From Pristiophorus japonicus (taxonomy: Eukaryota): DNA of 64,000 nucleotides. How positions within the stretch are numbered: position 1 is the first letter of the stretch; each line of letters begins with the position of its first letter. Under the pieces are notes generated by a model that saw only the letters and a list, made by a program, of their open reading frames with translations, did no database searches and had not been told where the DNA came from. Positions 13,148-59,571 of this stretch are shown piece after piece. The position numbers and the translations under genes were made by a program. Location of the stretch: positions 317,068,001 to 317,132,000 of the forward strand of contig NC_091979.1 of assembly GCF_044704955.1 (NCBI RefSeq). The letters are read 5' to 3'.

Positions 13148-15634
13148 CTTTAATATGCACATAGATTGGGTTAGCCAAACTGGAAGCAATACGGTGGAGG
13201 AGGATTTCCTGGAGTGCATAAGGGATGGTTTTCTAGACCAATATGTCGAGGAACCAACTAGGGGGGAGGCCATCTTAGACTGGGTGTTGTGTAATGAGAG
13301 AGGATTAATTAGCAATCTCATTGTGCGAGGCCCCTTGGGGAAGAGTGACCATAATATGGTCGAATTCTGCATTAGGATGGAGAATGAAACAATTAATTCA
13401 GAGACCATGGTCCAGAACTTAAAGAAGGGTAACTTTGAAGGTATGAGGCATGAATTGGCTAAGATAGATTGGCTAATGATACTTAAGGGGTTGACTGTGG
13501 ATGGGCAATGGCAGACATTTAGAGACCGCATGGATAAATTGCAACAATTGTACATTCCTGTCTGGCGTAAAAATAAAAAAGGGAAGGTGGCTCAACCGTG
13601 GCTATCTAGGGAAATCAGGGATAGTATTAAAGCCAAGGAAATGGCATACAAATTGGCCAGAAATAGCAGCGAACCCGGGGACTGGGAGAAATTTAAAACT
13701 CAGCAGAGGAGGACAAAGGGTTTGATTAGGGCAGGGAAAATGGAGTACGAGAAGAAGCTTGCAGGGAACATGAAGGCGGATTGCAAAAGTTTCTATAGGT
13801 ATGTAAAGAGAAAAAGGTTAGTAAAGACAAACGTAGGTACCCTGCAGTGAGAATCAGGGGAAGTCATAACGGGGAACAAAGAAATGGCAGACCAATTGAA
13901 CAAGTACTTTGGTTCAGTATTCACTAAGGAGGACACAAACAACCTTCCGGATATAAAAGGGGTCAGAGGGTCTAGTAAGGAGGAGGAACTGAGGGAAATC
14001 TTTATTAGTCGGGAAATTGTGTTGGGGAAATTGATGGGATTGAAGGCCGATAAATCCCCAGGGCCTGATGGACTGCATCCCAGAGTACTTAAGGAGGTGG
14101 CCTTGGAAATAGCGGATGCATTGACAGTCATTTTCCAACATTCCATTGACTCTGGATCAGTTCCTATCGAGTGGAGGGTAGCCAATGTAACCCCATTTTT
14201 TAAAAAAGGAGGGAGAGAGAAAGCAGGGAATTATAGACCGGTCAGCCTGACCTCAGTAGTGGGTAAAATGATGGAATCAATTATTAAGGATGTCATAGCA
14301 GTGCATTTGGAAAATGGTGACATGATAGGTCCAAGTCAGCATGGATTTGTGAAAGGGAGATCATGCTTGACAAATCTTCTGGAATTTTTTGAGGATGTTT
14401 CCAGTAAAGTGGACAAAGGAGTACCAGTTGATGTGGTATATTTGGACTTTCAGAAGGCTTTCGACAAGGTCCCACACAGGAGATTAATGTGCAAAGTTAA
14501 AGCACATGGGATTGGGGGAAGTGTGCTGATGTGGATTGAGAACTGGTTGTCAGACAGGAAGCAAAGAGTAGGAGTAAATGGGTACTTTTCAGAATGGCAG
14601 GCAGTGACTAGTGGGGTACCGCAGGGTTCTGTGCTGGGGCCCCAGCTGTTTACATTGTACATTAATGATTTAGACGAGGGGATTAAATGTAGTATCTCCA
14701 AATTTGCGGATTACACTAAGTTGGGTGGCAGTGTGAGCTTCGAGGAGGATGCTATGAGGCTGCAGAGTGACTTGGATAGGTTAGGTGAGTGGGCAAATGC
14801 GTGGCAGATGAAGTATAATGTGGATAAATGTGAGGTTATCCACTTTGGTGGTAAAAACAGAGAGACAGACTATTATCTGAATGGTGACAGATTAGGAAAA
14901 GGGAAGGTGCAACGAGACCTGGGTGTCATGGTACATCAGTCATTGAAGGTTGGCATGCAGGTACAGCAGGCGGTTAAGAAAGCAAATGGCATGTTGGCCT
15001 TCATAGCGAGGGGATTTGAGTACAGGGAGGTGTTGCTACAGTTGTACAGGGCCTTGGTGAGGCCACACCTGGAGTATTGTGTACAGTTTTGGTCTCCTAA
15101 CTTGAGGAAGGACATTCTTGCTATTGAGGGAGTGCAGCGAAGATTCACCAGACTGATTCCCAGGATGGTGGGACTGACCTATCAAGAAAGACTGGATCAA
15201 CTGGGCTTGTATTCACTGGAGTTCAGAAGAGTGAGAGGGGACCTCATAGAAACGTTTAAAATTCTGACGGGTTTGGACAGGTTGGATGCAGGAAGAATGT
15301 TCCCAATGTTGGGGAAGTCCAGAACCAGGGGTCACAGTCTAAGGAGAAGGGGTAAGCCATTTAGGACCGAGATGAGGAGAAACATCTTCACCCAGAGAGT
15401 GGTGAACCTGTGGAATTCTCTACCACAGAAAGTAGTTGAGGCCAATTCACTAAATATATTCAAAAGGGAGTTAGATGAAGTCCTTACTACTCGGGGGATC
15501 AAGGGGTATGGCGTGAAAGCAGGAAGGTGGTACTGAAGTTTCATGTTCAGCCATGAACTCGCTGAATGGCGGTGCAGGCTAGAAGGGCTGAATGGCCTGC
15601 TCCTGCACCTATTTTCTATGTTTCTATGTTTCTA
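13148..15634 (+). mobile_element. 5'-truncated CR1 LINE (partial EN + RT), inactive
   Basis: ORFs 13155-13850 and 13884-15536 are separated by an in-frame TGA. Catalytic FADD is mutated to FADY. (TTTCTATG)n tail. Confidence 0.95.
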
Positions 15635-46076: not shown

Positions 46077-47672
46077 TCAGGTGACTGTGTATCATCTCCA
46101 ATACCTTAAGTTCAGTTTCCAGCATTGCACGGACCTGAGAAAACCTCCACAGAAAGGCTGTTTCTGGTGCTGTTTCAAGGAGGTGATTTTCCATTCGGTG
46201 TAAATATGGTGTGAGGCATCTGCACCTCTCCCAATGTTAGGTTCTTCCACTGTCCAATTCCACGGAACTTTCCCAACCATTCCTCCCTAACCTTTCTCTA
46301 ATAGCATTATGGCTACAGCTATCAGTGTAAGGTCCATGTGTCACTCCACAATCAACAGCTGTTCAGTTTACTGCCTGTGTTAAAGGCTGGTCTGAATGTT
46401 CCTTACAGAGCTGGTACAGTTCACTATCACAAAGTATGGACTATGAGTGACACTTGCTGTCAGCATTAGCGCAGATCAATGACACAAATAAAATCGTAAC
46501 TACAGTTCATTTTTATTGGTTATTTTAACACTCAGTCTCTGATATTACAGCAAATTAACATTTCTGCTGGGAAAAGCTATCTCTGCAACTATAAAGCTTT
46601 ATTATTTTTTAACCATTTTAATCTATTACTTTATCATTTATCCATAAGTCACGCGGTAGAAATTAACCGCTTCCATTGAAGAGGCTGGAAATCAGGGAGC
46701 TGTGGGCGGCTCATTTCCCGGAGAGAGAGAACATAATCTTTATTCAGGCGTGATACCGACCATCCCGTACAAAGCGGGGAAATCGGTGGGGACTGTACTC
46801 ACAAATACTGAAGCAAAAGGCTGCTTCGAATAAAAATATTAACAGTATATATTAAATAAGGTAAGTCGGATGAGTATGCTGCCAAACTTGTTCATTGATC
46901 AGAGAGCATCACAGCATCTTTCAAACACTGGGGTAGAGTCTCTGCTAATTTGTGATAGTTTTATCAGCACAATCCGGTGAAAACTGCTCAACCAGCGCAA
47001 AAGATCACGGGAACTCGAGCATGATTTACATCAAGTGTAAATCAAGTATTCCGTGATCTTTAACACTGGTTTAAAAATCTACAAAACTGGCCCGGCCCAC
47101 AGATAGAAATAACGAGGATGGCGAGTTTCCACCGATTGCACCCGTTCGAGGAAGGTTTTCAAATTAAACTAATTGTCTTAGGCACCAGGCACTAGTCGGC
47201 ATGATTTAAAAGTTTTACATATTAAACATACTTTATTGACTTACAAACTGACTAATGTATAACAATGAAACTAATAAATGGCTCAGTATAGTTTTCTTTT
47301 CAGACATTTCAGTTATCTTAAATCAGGTTTCCCACAGGTGAAAGGCTGGGCACTTCTATTAAAAATGCTTATTTTTTGTCATAATCAAACTCCAAGGCCT
47401 TTTCAAAGCATTAAATAGCTTCGCACTTCTCCCCATCCAGCTGGTGCAGTAACCCAGGAACACCAAAGGCCTTGCTGTCTCTGGGATTCCTGTCAATTTG
47501 TTTTGATACAATCTTTCTCAAATTTTCGTGACACAATTGCCAACCTTTTGTGCCTTGTTCAATTGTAAGTCCTTCCAGAAAATTGGTGATTGCATTTGAT
47601 TCAGATCCTTTCTAGTGCAGTTCAAATAACCCAAACTGCAAAGACACTGCCTGCTGTTTATCAGGACATAAT

Positions 47673-51380: not shown

Positions 51381-52688
51381 TGCAATTGTGCAAAAATAAA
51401 TGATGGCTTCTGCTCAAATGCCTTTTCAAAATAGTACTTGCATTGATTGATCAACTCAGCTTTCTGTTGAAAAGCAGGATTGCGAGGGGCTTTGCTGCCT
51501 GGATATTTGATCAGTTGAAATATTTTTTTTCTGCAACACTGACCTATTTGGTGGTGTATGAAGGTAGAGTTTGGAGTAATTTTTAATGCTTTCTTCAACA
51601 GCTCCACAGCTTTTTCCACATCTCCTTCTCTTCTGTAAAATTTTGCTGCATAACGAGTTACATATGGAAGATCAGGGGACTTCTGCAATGCTTGTTCAAC
51701 TAATTCGTGTTCTTCCACCTTTTGATTGAACTCTTGTAGTTTTAGAGCCAACATGGCTACAGAGTCATCTGGATCAAGTTCCAGCACACGTCACAACTGC
51801 TTCACTGATTGGCTGCAGTCACCACTCTCTGGGGTACCAGAAAACCCTTCCAGACAGAACAAAACAGTCGCATAGCCAACGTTCCATTCAGTGTCATCAG
51901 GATCTTCCTCCAGAGTCTTCTCAAAACATTCCTTTGCCTCTTCATAGTATTGACAAGGAGAATTCAACAGTGACCAACCCTTCTCCCCGTATACTTCAGG
52001 TATCAGTGCTGTATACTGAGAGCCATCAGTAAATTATTTACAGATCATCTCCAGCTTGTCGAGGTAGGACTGGGCCTCTGTCAGTTGGCCCATGTGATAA
52101 TATACCCAGGCATAGTTTCCATAGGTGATGATGCTTCTTCTTTCAAATTCATGTTCATGGTTCTCCCTCAGAATCTTTTCAGCTTCCTTTAAGTTTTGAA
52201 TTGCCCCTTTGAATTGCCTTGCTGACAGTTTACAAATGCGAGGTGGTTGTCAGACCTGGCCTGATATTTCACACGAGCCTGTATTAAATCTTGTAATCTA
52301 TACTTCATGTCGTCCAAGTCAATGCTGTCTCTCTGTGGGCCCCACGTGAAGTGACATTGAAGCTGGCCAAGTTTTGCTTTCAAGCAATCATTCAGTGTGT
52401 TGCTGTAAGAGAACAAAATAATCAAAGCCCATCTTATGTGTATCTAACTTACATTTTTAGCTCATATATAATCAACATAGCAATGCTGGTAAAGTCAGAA
52501 TAGCAGAACAGATGAGCAGGTCAGTGCACATGGGCCCGGAACACCTCCCTGCAGCCTCACTGCCTGGCATCCCTCAGTTCGGGGGAAACCCATTGGAATC
52601 CCGTAATGGTCCCGGAGGCAACAACAAATGAACAATTGGCTCATGAGTGCCAGCAGAAATCCACGATCATCCATTAGTATGATCATAG

Positions 52689-53048
52689 GTAGGAACATAG
52701 GAACATGTTCCACCATTTAATTTATCATGGCTGAACTGTATCACAACTCCATCTACCCACCCTGGTTCTCTAACCCTTAATACCCTTGTCTAACAAAATT
52801 CTATCATCTCAGTTTTGACATTTTTAATTGGCCTAACCTCGACAGCTTATTGGGGGAGAGAGTTCCAGATTTCCACTACCCTTTGTGTGAAGAGGTGCTG
52901 TCTGACATCACCCCTGAATGGCTGAGCTCAAATTTCTATTTCATGCCCCCTTGTTCTGGCCTCCCCCACCAGAGGAAATCGTTTCTCTCGATCGACCCGG
53001 TCAAATCCTTTAATCATATCAAACATCTCAATTAGATCATCCCTTAAC
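52689..53048 (-). mobile_element. Old CR1 3' fragment
   Basis: (AGGAACAT)n tail and FTQRVVEIWNSLP-type sequence. Confidence 0.75.
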
Positions 53049-53593
53049 ACTGGGGAAAGAGGGCTCGGGGAATGGGAGACTGGGGAATGGGGGCTCGGGG
53101 AGAGGGAGACTGGGGAATGGGGGCTCGGGGAGAGGGAGACTGGGGAATGGGGGCTCGGGGAGAGGGAGACTGGGGAATGGGGGCTTGGGGAGAGTGAGAA
53201 TGGGGAATGGAGGCTTGGGGAGAGGGAGACTGGGGAATGGGAGCTCGGGGAGAGGGAGACTGGGGAATGGGGGCTCGGGGAGAGGGAGACTGGGAAATGG
53301 GGGCTTGGGGAGAGGGAAACTGGGGAATGGGGGCTCGGGGAGAGGGAGACTGGGGAATGAAGGCTTGGGGAGAGGGAAACTGGGGAATGGGGGCTCAGGG
53401 AGAGGGAGACTGGGGAATGGGAGCTCGGGGAGAGGGAGACTGGGGAATGGGGGCTCAGGGAGAAAGAGATTGGGGAATGGGGGCTCGGGGAGAGGAAGAC
53501 TGGGGAATGGGGCCTCGGGGAGATGGAGACTGGGGAATGGGGGCTCGGGGAGAGGGGGAATGGGGGCTCGGGAGAGAGAGACTGGGGAATGGG
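53049..53593. repeat. G-rich 30-bp minisatellite, left array, about 18 copies
   Basis: Unit GGGGGCTCGGGGAGAGGGAGACTGGGGAAT. Confidence 0.97.
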
Positions 53594-53751
53594 TCAGGGG
53601 GGATCATGGTGAGGCCAGGCGGGAGGTAGAAGAGGCCAGGTTGAGTGTAATTTATTCTGTGGGGGCCTGGAAGAGCTGGACTGATCCCTGGGCTCCAGAC
53701 AAGGTCACTGGGCCTCTCCAGCCCTGGCCTTCTCTCACACACCACAGCAAC

Positions 53752-53932
53752 TCCCTTCAGCCCCCTCCCAGCAGATCCTTTCAGTCCCTTCCCTGCAGAT
53801 CCCTTCAGCCCCCTCCCAGCCGATCCCTTCAGCCCCCTCCCAGCAGATCCCTTCAGCCCCCTCCGAACAGATCCATTCAGCCCCCTCCCAGCAGATCCCT
53901 TCAGCCCCCTCGCAGCAGATCCCTTGAACCCC
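53752..53932. repeat. C-rich 24-bp tandem repeat, about 7.5 copies
   Basis: Unit CCCTTCAGCCCCCTCCCAGCAGAT. Confidence 0.93.
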
Positions 53933-54052
53933 TCAGGAGATCGAGCTGCCGGGGGTGGGCAGAGCTTTCGGGGGGTTGGGAGTCGGGAAGTTGGGTTTGG
54001 ATGGTGGTGGGAGAACTCGGGACCGGGAGAGGCGGGGATTATCTTTAACCTA

Positions 54053-54096
54053 CCCGGCAACTGATGATGCAGCTCGCAGTATTTGTCTGATTGGAT
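54053..54096 (+). promoter_or_regulatory. MHC-type X1/X2-Y promoter module (RFX / CREB-ATF / NF-Y)
   Basis: CCCGGCAACTGATG (X1) overlaps TGATGATGC (X2-like), then a 20-bp spacer, then CTGATTGGAT (Y). This matches the motifs and 19-20 bp X-Y spacing of vertebrate MHC promoters. No S box at the canonical distance. Confidence 0.7.
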
Positions 54097-54279
54097 AGTT
54101 CAATGTTTGGAAAGTTTATTTCGGCACCAACACAAACTCTCCCCGTGTCTTTTCTTCCCGGAGCCTATTGACTCACAGCCTGTTTTTATTGTAATTGGAG
54201 ACAAATATACCCTCGAACCAATCGAACCGGAGGAGTCTGAGTGTAAAACACTCTGCACTGGGCAAAGCGCAAGAACAGA

Positions 54280-55358
54280 CAGCACAGGGCACAGAGACAG
54301 TCCCAGAGACACAGTATCAGCACAGGGCACCGAGACAGTCCCAGAGACACAGTATCAGCACAGGGCACAGAGAGACAGTCCCAGAGACACAGTATCAGCA
54401 CAGGGCACAGAGACAGTCCCAGAGACACAGTATCAGCACAGGGCACCGAGACAGTCCCAGAGACACAGTATCAGCACAGGGCACAGAGAGACAGTCCCAG
54501 AGACACAGTATCAGCACAGGGCACAGAGACAGTCCCAGAGACACAGTATCAGCACAGGGCACCAAGACAGTCCCGGAGACACAGTATCAGCATAGGGCAC
54601 AGAGAGACAGTCCCAGAGACACAGTATCAGCACAGGGCACAGAGAGACAGTCCCAGAGACACAGTATCAGCACAGGGCACAGAGAGACAGTCCCAGAGAC
54701 ACAGTATCAGCACAGGGCACAGAGAGACAGTCCCAGAGACACAGTATCAGCACAGGGCACAGAGAGACAGTCCCAGGGACACAGTATCAGCACTGGGCAC
54801 AGAGAGACAGTCCCAGAGACACAGTATCAGCACAGGGCACCGAGAGACAGTCTCAGAGACACAGTATCAGCACAGGGCACAGAGACAGTCCCAGAGACAC
54901 AGTATCAGCACAGGGCACAGAGACAGTCCCAGAGACACAGTATCAGCACTGGGCACAGAGAGACAGTCCCAGAGACACAGTATCGGCACAGGGCACAGAG
55001 AGACAGTCCCAGGGACACAGTATCAGCACTGGGCACAGAGAGACAGTCCCAGGGACACAGTATCAGCACAGGGCACAGAGAGACAGTCCCAGAGACACAG
55101 TATCAGCACAGGGCACAGAGAGACAGTCCCAGGGACACAGTATCAGCACTGGGCACAGAGAGACAGTCCCAGAGACACAGTATCAGCACTGGGCACAGAG
55201 AGACAGTCCCAGAGACACAGTATCAGCACTGGGCACAGAGAGACAGTCCCAGAGACACAGTATCAGCACTGGGCACAGAGAGACAGTCCCAGAGACACAG
55301 TATCAGCACAGGGCACAGAGAGACAGTCCCAGAGACACAGTATCGGCACAGGGCACAG
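54280..55358. repeat. 38/40-bp minisatellite, about 27 copies
   Basis: Unit AGCACAGGGCACAGAG(AG)ACAGTCCCAGAGACACAGTATC. Confidence 0.97.
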
Positions 55359-55454
55359 GAATCACACGGTCTGAATTGGGCGCAGCTCACGGACGGTCTC
55401 TCGGAAAAGGATTGCCTGCAAACCGCTCATTCCAGCCTGTCGAGGGAAGTAACA

Positions 55455-56522
55455 ATGTTTGGACTGACCGTGCTGGCCCTTCTGTGTGGAGAGGTGTGTG
55501 CAGGCTCTCACTCCCTACGGTACATGCACACGGCTATCACTCCGCTCCCGGGCATTGCTGAGTTCACCGATGTGGGTTATGTGGATGACCAGCAGTTTAT
55601 TTACTATGACAGTGTGAGCCGCCAGTACACCCCGCGGCAGCGGTGGATCAGGGAGAGCGAGGGCGCCGAGTACTGGGAGCGCTACACACAGATCCTGCGG
55701 GGCAAGGAGCAGGTGATGAAAGGCAACATTCAGACCGTCTTAACCCGCACCAACCAGACCGGCGGGATCCACACGCTGCAGAGGTTGTGCGGCTGTGAGC
55801 TGCGGGATGACGGCACCACCAGCGGCTTCTGGCAGTACGGCTGGGACGGGAAGGACCTGATCAGCTTCGACAAGGATCGCCTGGTGTGGGTCACCCCGGT
55901 ACCGTGGGGAGAGATCACCAAGAACAAGTGGGACCAGGACAGGGCCGAAATGCAGCAGGACAAAAGTTACCTGGAGCAGGAGTGCATCGAGTGGCTGAAG
56001 AAATACCTGAAGGCTGGAGAGAGAGAACTGGGAGCTGTTGCTCCTCAAGTGTTTCCTTCTGTGGACAAGGCGTCGAATATTAAAGCCCCCCAACTCTCCT
56101 GTCTCCTCACAGGTTTTTACCCTCGCGAAATCCAAGTGACCCTCCTGAGAAATGGCGAGCCAATCAGGGACACGGAATCCACGGGCATCCTGCCCAACCA
56201 CGATGGCACCTACCAGCTCACGACATGGGCTCAGATCGAGCCCGCGGATGGAGCCACCTATTCCTGTCAGTATGAGCAGAGCGGCCAAGCAGGAGGGAAG
56301 ACCCGAGACTGGGACGGGACGTTCCGAGTGACTCCAGGATCGCCAGAGGGAACAAATAGGGGTTTGATTGTTGGAATTGTGATTGCTGCCGTCGCCCTGA
56401 TTGCTCTTGTGATCGGTGCGGTTGTGTGGAAGAGGAGAGGAGGAGAGGAGACATCTGGTTACAGCCCAGCGAACCCTGCTGAACGAGGAGAATTATCCCC
56501 AAACTCACCAGCCCAAGCCTGA
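55455..56522 (+). CDS. MHC class I heavy chain, shark classical UAA-like, intronless, 355 aa
   Basis: ACAATG start and 16-aa leader. Alpha1 GSHSLRY..VGYVDD..EYW..NQT, alpha2 HTLQ..GC..WDGKD..TKNKW..YLEQECIEWLKKYL, Ig-C1 alpha3 C..TGFYP..PNHDGTYQ..YSC, then TM and a cytoplasmic GYSPA tail. Uninterrupted ORF. Confidence 0.95.
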   Translation: MFGLTVLALLCGEVCAGSHSLRYMHTAITPLPGIAEFTDVGYVDDQQFIYYDSVSRQYTPRQRWIRESEGAEYWERYTQILRGKEQVMKGNIQTVLTRTNQTGGIHTLQRLCGCELRDDGTTSGFWQYGWDGKDLISFDKDRLVWVTPVPWGEITKNKWDQDRAEMQQDKSYLEQECIEWLKKYLKAGERELGAVAPQVFPSVDKASNIKAPQLSCLLTGFYPREIQVTLLRNGEPIRDTESTGILPNHDGTYQLTTWAQIEPADGATYSCQYEQSGQAGGKTRDWDGTFRVTPGSPEGTNRGLIVGIVIAAVALIALVIGAVVWKRRGGEETSGYSPANPAERGELSPNSPAQA

Positions 56523-56773
56523 GGCTGGTCCCGAAGTGAAGTTCACTGGGACTAGAATCTGGACTTGCTGTGTCGCAAGGAGGGTTCATTCAGAAGCAAT
56601 CCACGATTCTGCATCTTCATTTCGTTTGATTGTCACTGGCTGCTGCCAGTGTTAATAGTAATCGGTAACGTATCTATCATTGAGTGGGTTTGGGGATATT
56701 TTCTTTTTGGTGATTGGATAGAAATCTCCAGTTGGGTCTTTTGGTGTTTAATGTAAATGAGATATGTCTAATT

Positions 56774-56834
56774 CGGCACGGGCTGGATGGCCAAATGGTC
56801 GTCTTCCGTGCTGCAACCATTCTATGATTCTATG
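56774..56834 (+). mobile_element. CR1 3'-terminal fragment with (ATTCTATG)2 tail ending the class I 3' region
   Basis: GGCACGGGCTGGATGGCCAAATGGTCGTCTTCCGTGCTGCAACCATTCTATGATTCTATG resembles the other CR1 3' ends in the window. Confidence 0.8.
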
Positions 56835-56847
56835 TATGGTGGCCGGA

Positions 56848-57628
56848 GGAGAGGGAGACTGGGAATGGGGGCTGGGGGAGAGAGGGAGACTGGGAATGGG
56901 GGCTTGGGGAGAGAGAGACTGGGGAATGGGGGCTCAGGGAGAGGGAGACTGGGGAATGGGGGCTCGTGGAGAGGGAGACTGGGGAATGGGGGGTGGGGGA
57001 GAGGGAGACTGGGGAATGGGGGCTCGGGGAGAGAGGGAGAGACTGGGGAATGGGGGCTTGGGAAGAGGGAGACTGGGAATGGGGGCTCCGGGCGAGGGAG
57101 ACTGGGGAATGGGGGCTTGGGGAGAGTGGGAGACTGAGGAATGGGAGCTTGGGGAGAGGGAGACTGGGGAATGGGGGTTCAGGGAGACGGTGACTGGGGA
57201 ATGGGGGCTCAGGGAGCGGGAGACTGGCGAATGGGGGCTTGGGGACTGGGAGACTTGGGAATGGGGGCTCGGGGAGAGAGAGACTGGGGAATGAGGGCTT
57301 GGGGAGAGGGAGACTTGGGAATGGGGCCTCGGGGAGAGAGAGACTGGGGAATGGGGGCTCGGGGAGCGGGAGACTGGGGAATGAGGGCTTGGGGAGAGGG
57401 AGACTTGGGAATGGGGCCTCGTGGAGAGAGAGACTGGGGAATGGGGGCTCGGGGAGAGAGGGAGACTGGGGAATGGGGGCTCTGGGAGAGGGAGACTGGG
57501 GAATGGGGGATTGGGGACTGGGAGACTTGGGAATGGGGGCTCGGGGAGATAGAGACTGGGGAATGGGGGCTCGGGGAGAGAGAGACTGGGGAATGGGGGC
57601 TCGGGGAGAGGGAGACTGGGGAATGGGG
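56848..57628. repeat. G-rich 30-bp minisatellite, right array, about 26 copies
   Basis: Same unit and orientation as 53049-53593, but more heterogeneous. Confidence 0.97.
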
Positions 57629-58490
57629 TGGGTGTGGGTTCCAGTATTTCCCCCAGAGCCGGGAGCAGCAGCAACGTGGTGAGTGGGAGTGACACTGAGA
57701 GAGGAGCAGCCAGTAAAGGGGTGAGTGAAACCTGGGGACCTTACTGTGGGTAAATAGTGAAAGATTATTTCCAGTGGTGGGCGAATGGGGAACTATGGAA
57801 CAGAAACCAAGGATTCTAAAACCTAAAGGGAACGTGATAAATATTTGAAAAGGAAGAATGTTATAAGATCTGGGGGGAATGGGATTACAGAAGAGAGTGC
57901 GAGCTCCGAGGCCGAATGGTCTCCTCCTGTGTAGTCATTTCTATAATTCTATGAAAACCCTCCTTTATTGAGACCGAACACATGGAATGGTTTAGAAATG
58001 TTGGTGCTGAGCTGAGTTTAGGACAATGTTCCCTGTGAGAAGTGCCCCAAACACTGAGCTCACTGCCCTTTGCGCAATCTCTCGGATTGGTTCAGGTGGG
58101 TCTGTGCCGGCCGGGTTTGACGTGTGAAGTCCAAATACAGATCAGCTCAGACTGAGGTTCCCAGTTCAGAATTGTCACCTTCACACGGAACCGGAGACCA
58201 AATCAGATTCCAAGGAGATAGAGAGAGAGATGGGGCCTGTTAAATGTGGCTTCAACTGGGGAGCCTGACCTCACCTGGTGCAGTGCAGGGGGATTCTGGG
58301 TATGGTTTCAGGGTGAGTATCAGTGGGTTAAAGTATTACTGCTAGTTACACGTAGGATAGAGAGACATTACACCTATTACTGCTTGTAACATATAGACTA
58401 TCAATGAGTTATTGTATTACTGTTGGTTGTGAGGGGCATCTGATTGTCAGCACTTTTTCGAAATCAGGGATTCCTAAAAATGTATAAAAC

Positions 58491-59571
58491 TGTCACGAAT
58501 GTGTAAAACGGATAAGAATATTATGTTTAAATCGTTGTTTTGAACTGCAGACGGAATATCTATTCGAATCAGAGAAATGCTTAGAAATGGAGGGTATAGT
58601 TTTTTGTACTATTTACAATCTCCCTGATGCTAGGCAATTTAAATACTTGTTGATGTATTTTATGTATAATGCAACGGGTAGGGTTTAAAGTTACCTGAAC
58701 AAAACTGCTGGCGTAGATAATGAAAGGAAGTTTGTAGAGTTACGGTAAACATGTTGCTATGTCGTAAAAGAGGTAACACTCTGGGGTGAGCAGTTTTCTG
58801 GTTTTGCTTCTGTAGAAAAAAAATGAAGTAGAGGGAACCTAATTAATCAAAGGGGACCTAATTAAGTAACGTTAACAACCAAAAACAAAGGCTGTCAGAA
58901 ACAAAAGAAATACGTGCTCCGAAACACAGGGAAAATGTTAAAACTCCAACTCTTCGGAAGATAAATCACCTTATCACAGTATAACCCAGACAGTTGGGCC
59001 AAGGTTAGGTCACATGAGGTGATAAATGATTACGGGAAACAAAGGCGGATTGAGAAAAATCTCAACTGGTTGAGAGCAGATCAGCCAAGAGGTGCAGACC
59101 TGAGAATGATGTAGCACGTAACTTATCAGATAAAAGGCGCACAGGGGAGGTAACGAAGCTTGCTGTCAATATAATTGTATTAACTAATTAATATTTGCAA
59201 TCATAAAGTTAGGCGAAACTTTGTGATGCGGCAGGGAAACAACAAATGGAAAGCTTCCACACGGAACTTCATAATTTTGTATGTATTTTGACTGTTACTA
59301 TAAAAATAGTAACCTGACGCTTGTTCGAGGAGAACAGTTAGTTTGGATCACCGAGTTACTGAACTCGTGCAGAAGCTGTCTTTCTCTCGATCGAGTACTT
59401 AATAAACAAATCTTTTCTCCAAAACAGACTTGTGTTGAGCATCTTTGTAATACTCCACATCAGCTTCATAGTTCAAAGAGTAGAGGAATAAGGCTGTGTA
59501 GTGATTGTTCCTGGGAGAATAGAGACAGAGAGGTATCAAAGGAATTCCACAGAAAAGCTACTTCGATAAGA
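58491..59571 (+). mobile_element. Putative 5' LTR (about 1.08 kb) of a retrovirus-like element
   Basis: Starts TGTCACGAA, TATAAAA at about 59299, AATAAA at 59401, imperfect inverted end TTCGATAAGA. Followed by gag. Confidence 0.65.

Follow-up and report, generated by a model that had tools for sequence, protein, structure and literature searches.

A probable LINE-mediated MHC class I retrocopy within a G-rich minisatellite of an IFIT gene cluster in the shark Pristiophorus japonicus

In a 64,000-nt stretch of Pristiophorus japonicus DNA (the window), two arrays of the same 30-bp G-rich unit enclose a 3,242-bp cassette that holds a 355-aa MHC class I open reading frame. This arrangement raises the question of whether the cassette was inserted into a pre-existing array, or whether the arrays are recombination handles for its excision, circularisation or tandem amplification, both of which a sequence-only reading had offered. 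In this assembly the first alternative found support and the second did not. The features, in window coordinates, are as follows:

about 47378-47665: 3′ part of a disabled IFIT-like exon, beyond LINE insertions
51383..52434, minus strand: IFIT-like coding exon, disabled by in-frame stops and a frameshift
52439..53048, no strand assigned: flank B, which lies 5′ of the IFIT exon and has a LINE fragment at its array end
53049..53593, plus strand: array 1, 30-bp G-rich minisatellite of 18 units (TRF 18.4 copies)
53592..53800, plus strand: element E, a conserved block, 5′ end of the inserted DNA
53745..53932, plus strand: 24-bp minisatellite, differing in length between copies
53933..54048, plus strand: G-rich linker without a convincing source
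54049..54303, plus strand: class I promoter core, with boxes that we take to be X1/X2-like (54049), Y (54087), AP-1-like (54169) and CCAAT (54218)
54280..55358, plus strand: 40-bp minisatellite, 5′ UTR
55455..56522, plus strand: intronless MHC class I heavy-chain ORF, 355 aa (leader, a1, a2, a3, TM, cytoplasmic tail)
56523..56834, plus strand: 3′ UTR, 81% identical to the parent-type last exon
56771-56834: CR1-type LINE 3′ tail, ending in ATTCTATG repeats and marking the 3′ end of the insert
56836..57628, plus strand: array 2, 30-bp minisatellite of 26 units (TRF 26.2 copies), natural downstream flank kept
57629..58447, plus strand: element A, which normally follows the minisatellite in the IFIT cluster

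An intron-free class I gene and its promoter

The predicted protein matched PF00129 (E 8e-53) and PF07654, and its best match among solved structures was 6LUP. It carries the features of an MHC class I heavy chain: a1/a2, a C1-set a3, a TM segment, an N-glycan site (N100) and two disulfide pairs (C114/C177 and C216/C271), with all four domain cysteines kept. Of the nine positions that we take to be the peptide-terminus anchors of classical class Ia molecules, eight are retained (Y23, Y73, R98, T155, K158, W159, Y172 and Y184), and the ninth (equivalent to position 123) is L135, as in the Squalus sequence P0006. The cassette shares its a3 group with Squalus AAN77874 (P0006), Heptranchias P0007 and P0008, and the gene P0005 on contig C19; this group of 10 sequences was supported at 100/99 in an a3-TM-cytoplasmic tree. 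Like the cassette, P0005-P0008 carry a 4-residue a3 insertion, and identity is 72-74%. Unlike these members of the group, the cassette is intronless, lies within an IFIT cluster and is nearly invariant between copies: 0-3 residues separate the paralogous copies of this one assembly from the window copy.

Comparison with the spliced C19 paralog showed that all seven introns are gone exactly at the splice boundaries. In the window, its exons of 49, 261, 273, 276, 126, 36 and 48 nt and the UTR exon follow one another without a gap, and the spliced product is colinear with the cassette protein (261/355 aa identical). Three exon junctions were spanned by two DNA-run contigs of 961 nt, possibly from the source sample, and run X5, from another sample, gave contigs with 0-1 differences over 55694-56831. 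The cassette stops precisely at a CR1-type LINE tail, which the 3′ UTR of the C19 paralog also contains; beyond it the downstream flank of the parent is missing, and no poly(A) was found at the 3′ end of the insert, where the ATTCTATG repeats stand instead. Six of the eight matches to this tail were 3′ ends just after RT coding sequence, and the tail endpoint is shared by four scattered 5′-truncated class I copies (L016/L030, L040, L046 and L048). The assembly lacks the direct parent, the best a3 exon being 89% identical at the nucleotide level. The cassette is likely a processed retrocopy of an MHC class I gene, and the LINE tail in the 3′ UTR likely makes parent-type class I mRNA a substrate for retroposition.

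The promoter core is 82-84% identical to C19 class I promoters. In intron-containing class I genes, counterparts of element E lie 2.7-15 kb 5′ of the promoter, with 80-82% identity at five loci on C19 and C11, and the 24-bp minisatellite likely grew from the 3′ tail of this element. A source for the linker was sought in seven class I upstream regions, where the best scores were close to shuffle level and reflected G-richness only. The ISRE-like block directly upstream of the promoter core in paralogs is missing from the cassette; five paralogs have a conserved block immediately 5′ of the X box that the cassette lacks. An AG just 5′ of the X box in five paralogs is a candidate splice acceptor compatible with where homology starts, and no matching donor was found. 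The 40-bp minisatellite has one unit in the C19:54.67 gene and six related units in C19:49.77; it measures about 0.9-1.2 kb in six cassette copies and 4.5-5.6 kb in three. Downstream of the ORF, neither AATAAA nor ATTAAA occurs before 59401. The usual retrocopy lacks the parental promoter, and the cassette departs from this in having the promoter core and element E. We filed it as a promoter-inheriting variant because these two parts fit that rare class, which comprises about 3% of expressed mammalian retrocopies (Carelli et al. 2016, PMC4772013).

A minisatellite of the IFIT cluster on both sides

TRF placed both arrays on the plus strand, in agreement with the earlier observation that one unit flanks the cassette in the same orientation. 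A 20-nt core of the unit gave 39 matches (at most 3 mismatches; 0.01 expected by chance), all within the two arrays, which bears out the claim that the unit occurs nowhere else in the window. The four runs of at least three G described for each unit were also recovered (G-runs of 4, 5, 4 and 3), and mean G4Hunter scores were 1.79 for array 1 and 1.70 for array 2. Equally strong G4-type tracts also lie at 33.4-34.2 kb of the window. The genome search suggested with that reading disclosed no special tie to class I: an exact 28-mer of the unit had 454 matches genome-wide, all on C1 and C2 among the 100 matches listed, related arrays are present on C1 and C2, and the motif occurs without class I on C1, C2 and C5.

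The 30-mer is part of an IFIT-like cluster that comprises about 80 sequences; L101, an intact paralog of the disabled exon in the window, matches IFIT5 (E 4e-117). Fourteen nearby class-I-free arrays share the downstream flank, element A, with the window, and ATGG, a possible target-site duplication, stands at both cassette-array junctions, in the same phase of the 30-bp unit and at a site inside the tandem array. Both results favour insertion into a pre-existing array. By our own estimate, in-register junctions would arise by chance roughly 1 in 6-10 times. Element A is also dispersed on other contigs at about 80% identity. Array 1 is likely the 5′ part of the target array. The LINE fragment of flank B stops abruptly at array 1 and the LINE continues in L054; the boundary between flank B and array 1 is likely a deletion breakpoint. 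G-rich tracts also lie beside the C19 gene (65-75% similar); being low-complexity sequence of different units, they were discounted as the origin of the arrays. The arrays likely represent one old minisatellite of the IFIT gene cluster, split by the class I insertion.

Nine cassette copies lie on C3 amid IFIT-like genes, 140-540 kb apart, in both orientations and not in tandem, and they carry diagnostic SNPs. They sit in long segmental duplications (one class of at least 30 kb) whose ends do not coincide with the arrays; for two copies, homology of about 99% starts at or before 40.5 kb of the window and reaches at least 70.4 kb. C19 has dense spliced class I exons and one ABCB/TAP-type exon that is not TAP-specific, and is likely the MHC contig; a search for MHC class II to locate the MHC gave no match. 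The TAP/PSMB linkage used as a criterion for classical class Ia genes is lacking for the cassette copies, which are on C3, another chromosome-scale contig than C19.

Origin of the cassette and competing explanations

We think it quite probable that a class I gene was reverse-transcribed by the machinery of a CR1-type LINE and inserted, intron-free, into one pre-existing minisatellite of the IFIT cluster, with the frame kept and the arrays passive. Intron loss at seven sites, the LINE-like 3′ end, the class-I-free arrays and the nine copies in duplicated blocks were observed directly. The LINE protein would have recognised its own tail within the 3′ UTR of the class I transcript, with the array providing the primer. 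The template may have started upstream of the normal start, so that element E and the X-Y promoter core were carried along, and the kilobases between them would have been lost by splicing or later deletion. A separate deletion may have joined array 1 to an IFIT intron; segmental duplication of the cluster would then have produced nine copies of the class I gene, with purifying selection maintaining the open frame. Neither a promoter nor an element that in paralogs lies so far upstream is expected in an mRNA copy; both, together with the unsourced linker at 53933-54048, speak against a retrocopy origin. As no empty flank-B site is present, the pre-insertion state is reconstructed, not seen.

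The ORF is intact in eight of the nine copies and frameshifted in one; among 18 scattered class I retro-fragments, two are intact and 16 are disabled within at most 480 nt. The cassette branch gave a pN/pS of 0.41 (Fisher p=0.006; p=0.056 with UTR sites added), although this branch may include time as a since-lost intron-containing gene, the direct parent being missing. In simulations, about 4% or less of neutral ORFs survived at 8% divergence. Judged from sequence, purifying selection probably keeps the frame open, and the cassette probably encodes an expressed, near-monomorphic peptide-binding class I molecule. Contigs of run X5 were nearly identical to the CDS and to 57708-58953, with none over 52420-52703, an RNA-like pattern, yet its uncovered parts are no evidence. 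The kind of runs X5-X8 (DNA or RNA) is unrecorded, and no listed run is on record as RNA.

It is very improbable that the arrays serve as handles for excising, circularising or amplifying the class I unit with the aid of G4 or R-loop formation. Single-strand annealing between such direct repeats (0.55 and 0.79 kb, with G4 potential) could in principle remove the cassette. However, none of the ten junction sites is empty, as all ten copies of the 5′ (flank B) junction lead into the cassette, and the assembly contains neither the empty site nor the multimers by which such events were expected to be recognised. Homology between copies extends far beyond both arrays, and the duplications end well outside them. 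Each side retains its own variant set in all cassette copies (only three near-consensus variants, of 36 on the left and 46 on the right, are common to both), no hybrid left/right array was found in the assembly, and the motif occurs without class I on three contigs. Array-to-array joints in run contigs were set aside: their sides measure only 20-30 nt, and class-I-free arrays would be expected to yield such joints. As they stand in this assembly, the arrays probably served as a passive target and do not act as handles. Also improbable is that the cassette arose by genomic duplication of a class I gene together with upstream sequence and lost its introns later, through recombination with a full-length cDNA. 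No unusual transcript would then be needed to bring in the promoter and element E, but homology stops exactly at the LINE-type tail with the parental downstream flank absent, the four 5′-truncated retrocopies use the same end, and loss of the block 5′ of the X box would require a deletion anyway.

The same origin might instead have left nine non-functional copies, that is, a young, undecayed retrocopy of a lost parent amplified only along with the IFIT cluster, which we hold to be possible but doubtful. The absent parent and the frameshifted copy fit this explanation, as do the few differences among copies, which are both synonymous and replacement; the lost parental ISRE-like block and the lack of a poly(A) signal until 59401 likewise speak against a functional retrogene. 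On the other hand, the cassette has dead, tail-ended copies of similar depth as its neighbouring branches, three of them with 2-5 disablements in 325-480 nt, the four domain cysteines and eight of nine anchoring positions persist, and the X and Y boxes are retained where the UTR arrays change freely. Should the retrocopy be functional, it might, more speculatively, form a second shark class I locus outside the MHC, intron-free, with its own X-Y promoter and the ISRE lost, co-amplified and co-induced with about 80 IFIT genes. It could then act as a dosage-variable, interferon-driven, near-monomorphic presenter, in which the 5′-UTR minisatellite (0.9-5.6 kb) tunes the output of each copy.

Comparison with known systems

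Intronless copies with parental sequence upstream of the normal start have been attributed to upstream-initiated transcripts (Carelli et al. 2016, PMC4772013). Like these promoter-inheriting retrogenes, the cassette is intronless and has kept parental upstream sequence; it differs from those described there in being an MHC gene of a shark with a CR1-type tail in place of poly(A), in the joining of a far-upstream element to the promoter and in its nine-fold amplification. Stringent LINEs share their tails with SINEs, for example shark HE1/HER1 (Ohshima 2013, PMC3747384). As in HE1/HER1, a non-autonomous RNA with a LINE 3′ tail gave a copy ending exactly there, but the passenger in the cassette is a host mRNA with an intact ORF, and its tail matched local RT-bearing LINE ends, not HER1 itself.

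In marsupials, class I genes lie off the MHC and an intronless class II DAB copy exists (PMC3179965); the intronless copies treated in the relevant part of that study are class II pseudogenes only, whereas the cassette is class I, intact and multicopy. Our search of a literature that included few subscription journals found no intact MHC class I retrogene in sharks. For elasmobranchs, the relevant account in Verissimo et al. 2023 (PMC10751288) gives no class I gene outside the MHC and uses this for a model of the ancestral MHC. To the pattern as given there, the eight intact class I frames on a contig that bears IFIT genes form an exception, and one whose route can be traced.

Flanking arrays and their IFIT neighbourhood

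The class I cassette (3,242 bp) lies between two 30-bp G-rich minisatellite arrays, as follows.

53049-53593, same strand as array 2: array 1, a 30-bp unit found as a tandem repeat
55455-56522: class I open reading frame, 355 aa
56836-57628, same strand as array 1: array 2, its 30-bp unit identical to that of array 1

The sequence-only reading had described one G-quadruplex-type 30-mer, repeated on the same strand on both sides of the cassette and absent from the rest of the window. This description held, as G4 scores were strong for both arrays and all 39 matches of the unit core in the window (chance expectation 0.01) fell within them. It had further proposed either that the cassette was inserted into a pre-existing array or that the arrays serve as recombination handles. 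The former is favoured by 14 other sites in the IFIT cluster, each with its own 5′ flank, at which the minisatellite is again followed by the downstream flank of array 2 (element A) but no class I gene is present. Moreover, the 30-bp unit was in the same phase at the end of array 1 and the start of array 2, with ATGG at both junctions, which lends modest support to a single array having been split. The start of array 1 cuts abruptly into a LINE fragment lying 5′ of a disabled IFIT exon, which we read as a separate deletion.

The handle proposal was not supported in this assembly. Nine full cassette copies were identified at 316.6-319.3 Mb of contig C3, which contains the window, four on the plus and five on the minus strand with a spacing of 140-540 kb, and a tenth 5′ half on contig C3585. 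Homology passed beyond the arrays: two copies were ~99% homologous to the window from 40.5 kb or less to at least 70.4 kb, and the other three plus-strand copies matched it from 45 kb to 57.9 kb, these spans being lower bounds for the extent of duplication. All 10 assembled 5′ junction copies continued into the cassette, leaving no empty site among them, and left (n=10) and right (n=9) arrays shared only three variants: the consensus unit and two that differ by a single change. The assembled copies gave no indication that the arrays act as handles, although an assembly cannot reveal somatic events.

The exact two-unit pattern gave 43 matches, only at C3:311.7-319.5 Mb and on C3585, while an exact 28-mer of the unit gave 454 matches genome-wide. 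At three sampled 28-mer sites on contigs C1 and C2, one of them within a satellite of >100 kb, neither class I nor element A nor IFIT sequence was found. The suggested link between the 30-mer and class I was not borne out at these three sites or at the 14 cluster sites, and the arrays appear to belong to the IFIT-cluster neighbourhood. A satellite of >100 kb at C2:109.41-109.54 Mb (L111) has a closely related 30-bp unit.

Scoring of 150 candidates gave ~80 IFIT-like matches at C3:316.3-319.5 Mb, the cluster containing the window, and 10 on contig C5 (24.7-25.1 Mb), pseudogenes included; an intact cluster member matched IFIT5 (E 4e-117). Many of these ~90 matches have open frames of 483-515 aa, and together they amount to a very large IFIT expansion.

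Processed origin and probable promoter inheritance

An intron-containing paralog on contig C19 (54.66-54.68 Mb) consists of seven coding exons plus a UTR exon. None of its seven introns (148-5,489 bp) is present in the cassette, the losses falling at splice boundaries, and its spliced product (identical to the protein P0005) is colinear with the cassette, with 261/355 residues identical. Three exon junctions were spanned by contigs from DNA runs that possibly represent the source sample; contigs from a second sample covered 55694-56831 with 0-1 differences. These results indicate that the cassette is a processed copy.

Homology ended at 56832-56834, within ATTCTATG repeats. The final 64 nt of the cassette matched ends 3′ of reverse-transcriptase coding sequence in 6 of 8 matches among the fetched loci (RT orientation mixed in one of the six), and the same tail terminates four scattered 5′-truncated class I copies. 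Since stringent LINEs require such a 3′ tail (PMC3747384) and the cassette ends there, CR1-type target-primed reverse transcription probably made the cassette.

Upstream, the segment 54049-54303 shares 82-84% identity with class I promoters on C19 and contains X-, Y- and CCAAT-like boxes; the cassette lacks an ISRE-like block that five paralogs carry directly 5′ of the X box. Homology to loci with element E, the 5′ block of the insert, begins at 53592, the exact end of array 1. An element matching 53628-53790 lies 2.7, 7.2, 8.4 and 15 kb ahead of four class I promoters and also occurs at a fifth locus, on contig C11; a source for 53933-54048 was sought in seven class I upstream regions and none was found. 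A transcript starting upstream of the normal start would, once reverse-transcribed, yield a retrocopy with parental upstream DNA, a known route of promoter inheritance (~3% of expressed mammalian retrocopies; PMC4772013), and we infer that such a template brought in the parental promoter. Single units in the parental sequence likely gave rise to both the 24-mer and the 40-mer array. The length of the 5′-UTR 40-mer array (window 54280-55358; L006-L008) varies: six copies have ~0.9-1.2 kb of it and three have ~4.5-5.6 kb. The window copy's UTR has no upstream ATG.

Other class I sequences and retroelements were also observed. Some 15 copies of a spliced fragment (window 56063-56671; L032-L039, L041-L045, L049, L050), dispersed over many contigs, have common 5′ flanks and mostly common 3′ flanks, suggesting a class I cDNA piece inside a mobile element. 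Another class I type, whose a3 is different, is represented by two intronless copies, L019 (C17:3.9 Mb), with an inverted 5′ piece, and L020 (C2:319.8 Mb). At 13851-15536 the window holds a LINE reverse-transcriptase frame open over 561 aa (PF00078), belonging to one of its several near-identical LINE copies.

C19 is likely the MHC contig, and a survey, in the part available, reported no class I genes outside the elasmobranch MHC (PMC10751288). A second intron-containing set with the same promoter lies off it, at C11:148.35-148.58 Mb (L077-L084), and may represent a genuine second cluster or have been misplaced. At C19:56.61-56.68 Mb (L014, L067, L069, L070, L087, L088), a 36-bp satellite of >50 kb separates the leader and a1 exons of a class I gene.

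Integrity of the class I frame

The cassette protein is 99% identical to a database protein labelled sawshark and grouped with its top named relative, Squalus AAN77874 (72%), in the a3 tree. It retains 4/4 domain cysteines and 8/9 peptide-anchoring positions. Frames were intact in eight of the nine copies, 0-3 residues from the window copy, with a frameshift in one. Among retro-fragments (21 loci tried, L030-L050; 18 scored, aligned over at least 450 nt), 16 of 18 had a stop or frameshift within at most 480 coding nt, and cartilaginous-fish retrocopies have the lowest intact-ORF fraction, 15.7%, according to bioRxiv 10.64898/2026.06.26.734816. Simulated neutral frame survival at 8% divergence was ~4% without indels and 0/1,500 with them.

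Comparison with the C19 gene gave a dN/dS of 0.44 overall and of 0.28 for a3. For the branch of the cassette itself, pN/pS was 0.41 (17 synonymous, 21 replacement; p=0.006), weakening to p=0.056 once UTR sites were added; part of this branch may predate retroposition because the direct parent was not found in the assembly. The missing parent, and a near poly(A) signal looked for and not found, weaken a functional reading. Overall, the cassette appears to be an MHC class I retrogene that is intact, has been amplified, carries a promoter and sits within an IFIT cluster; it resembles retrogenes that inherit their promoter, with a LINE tail as the route of mobilisation.
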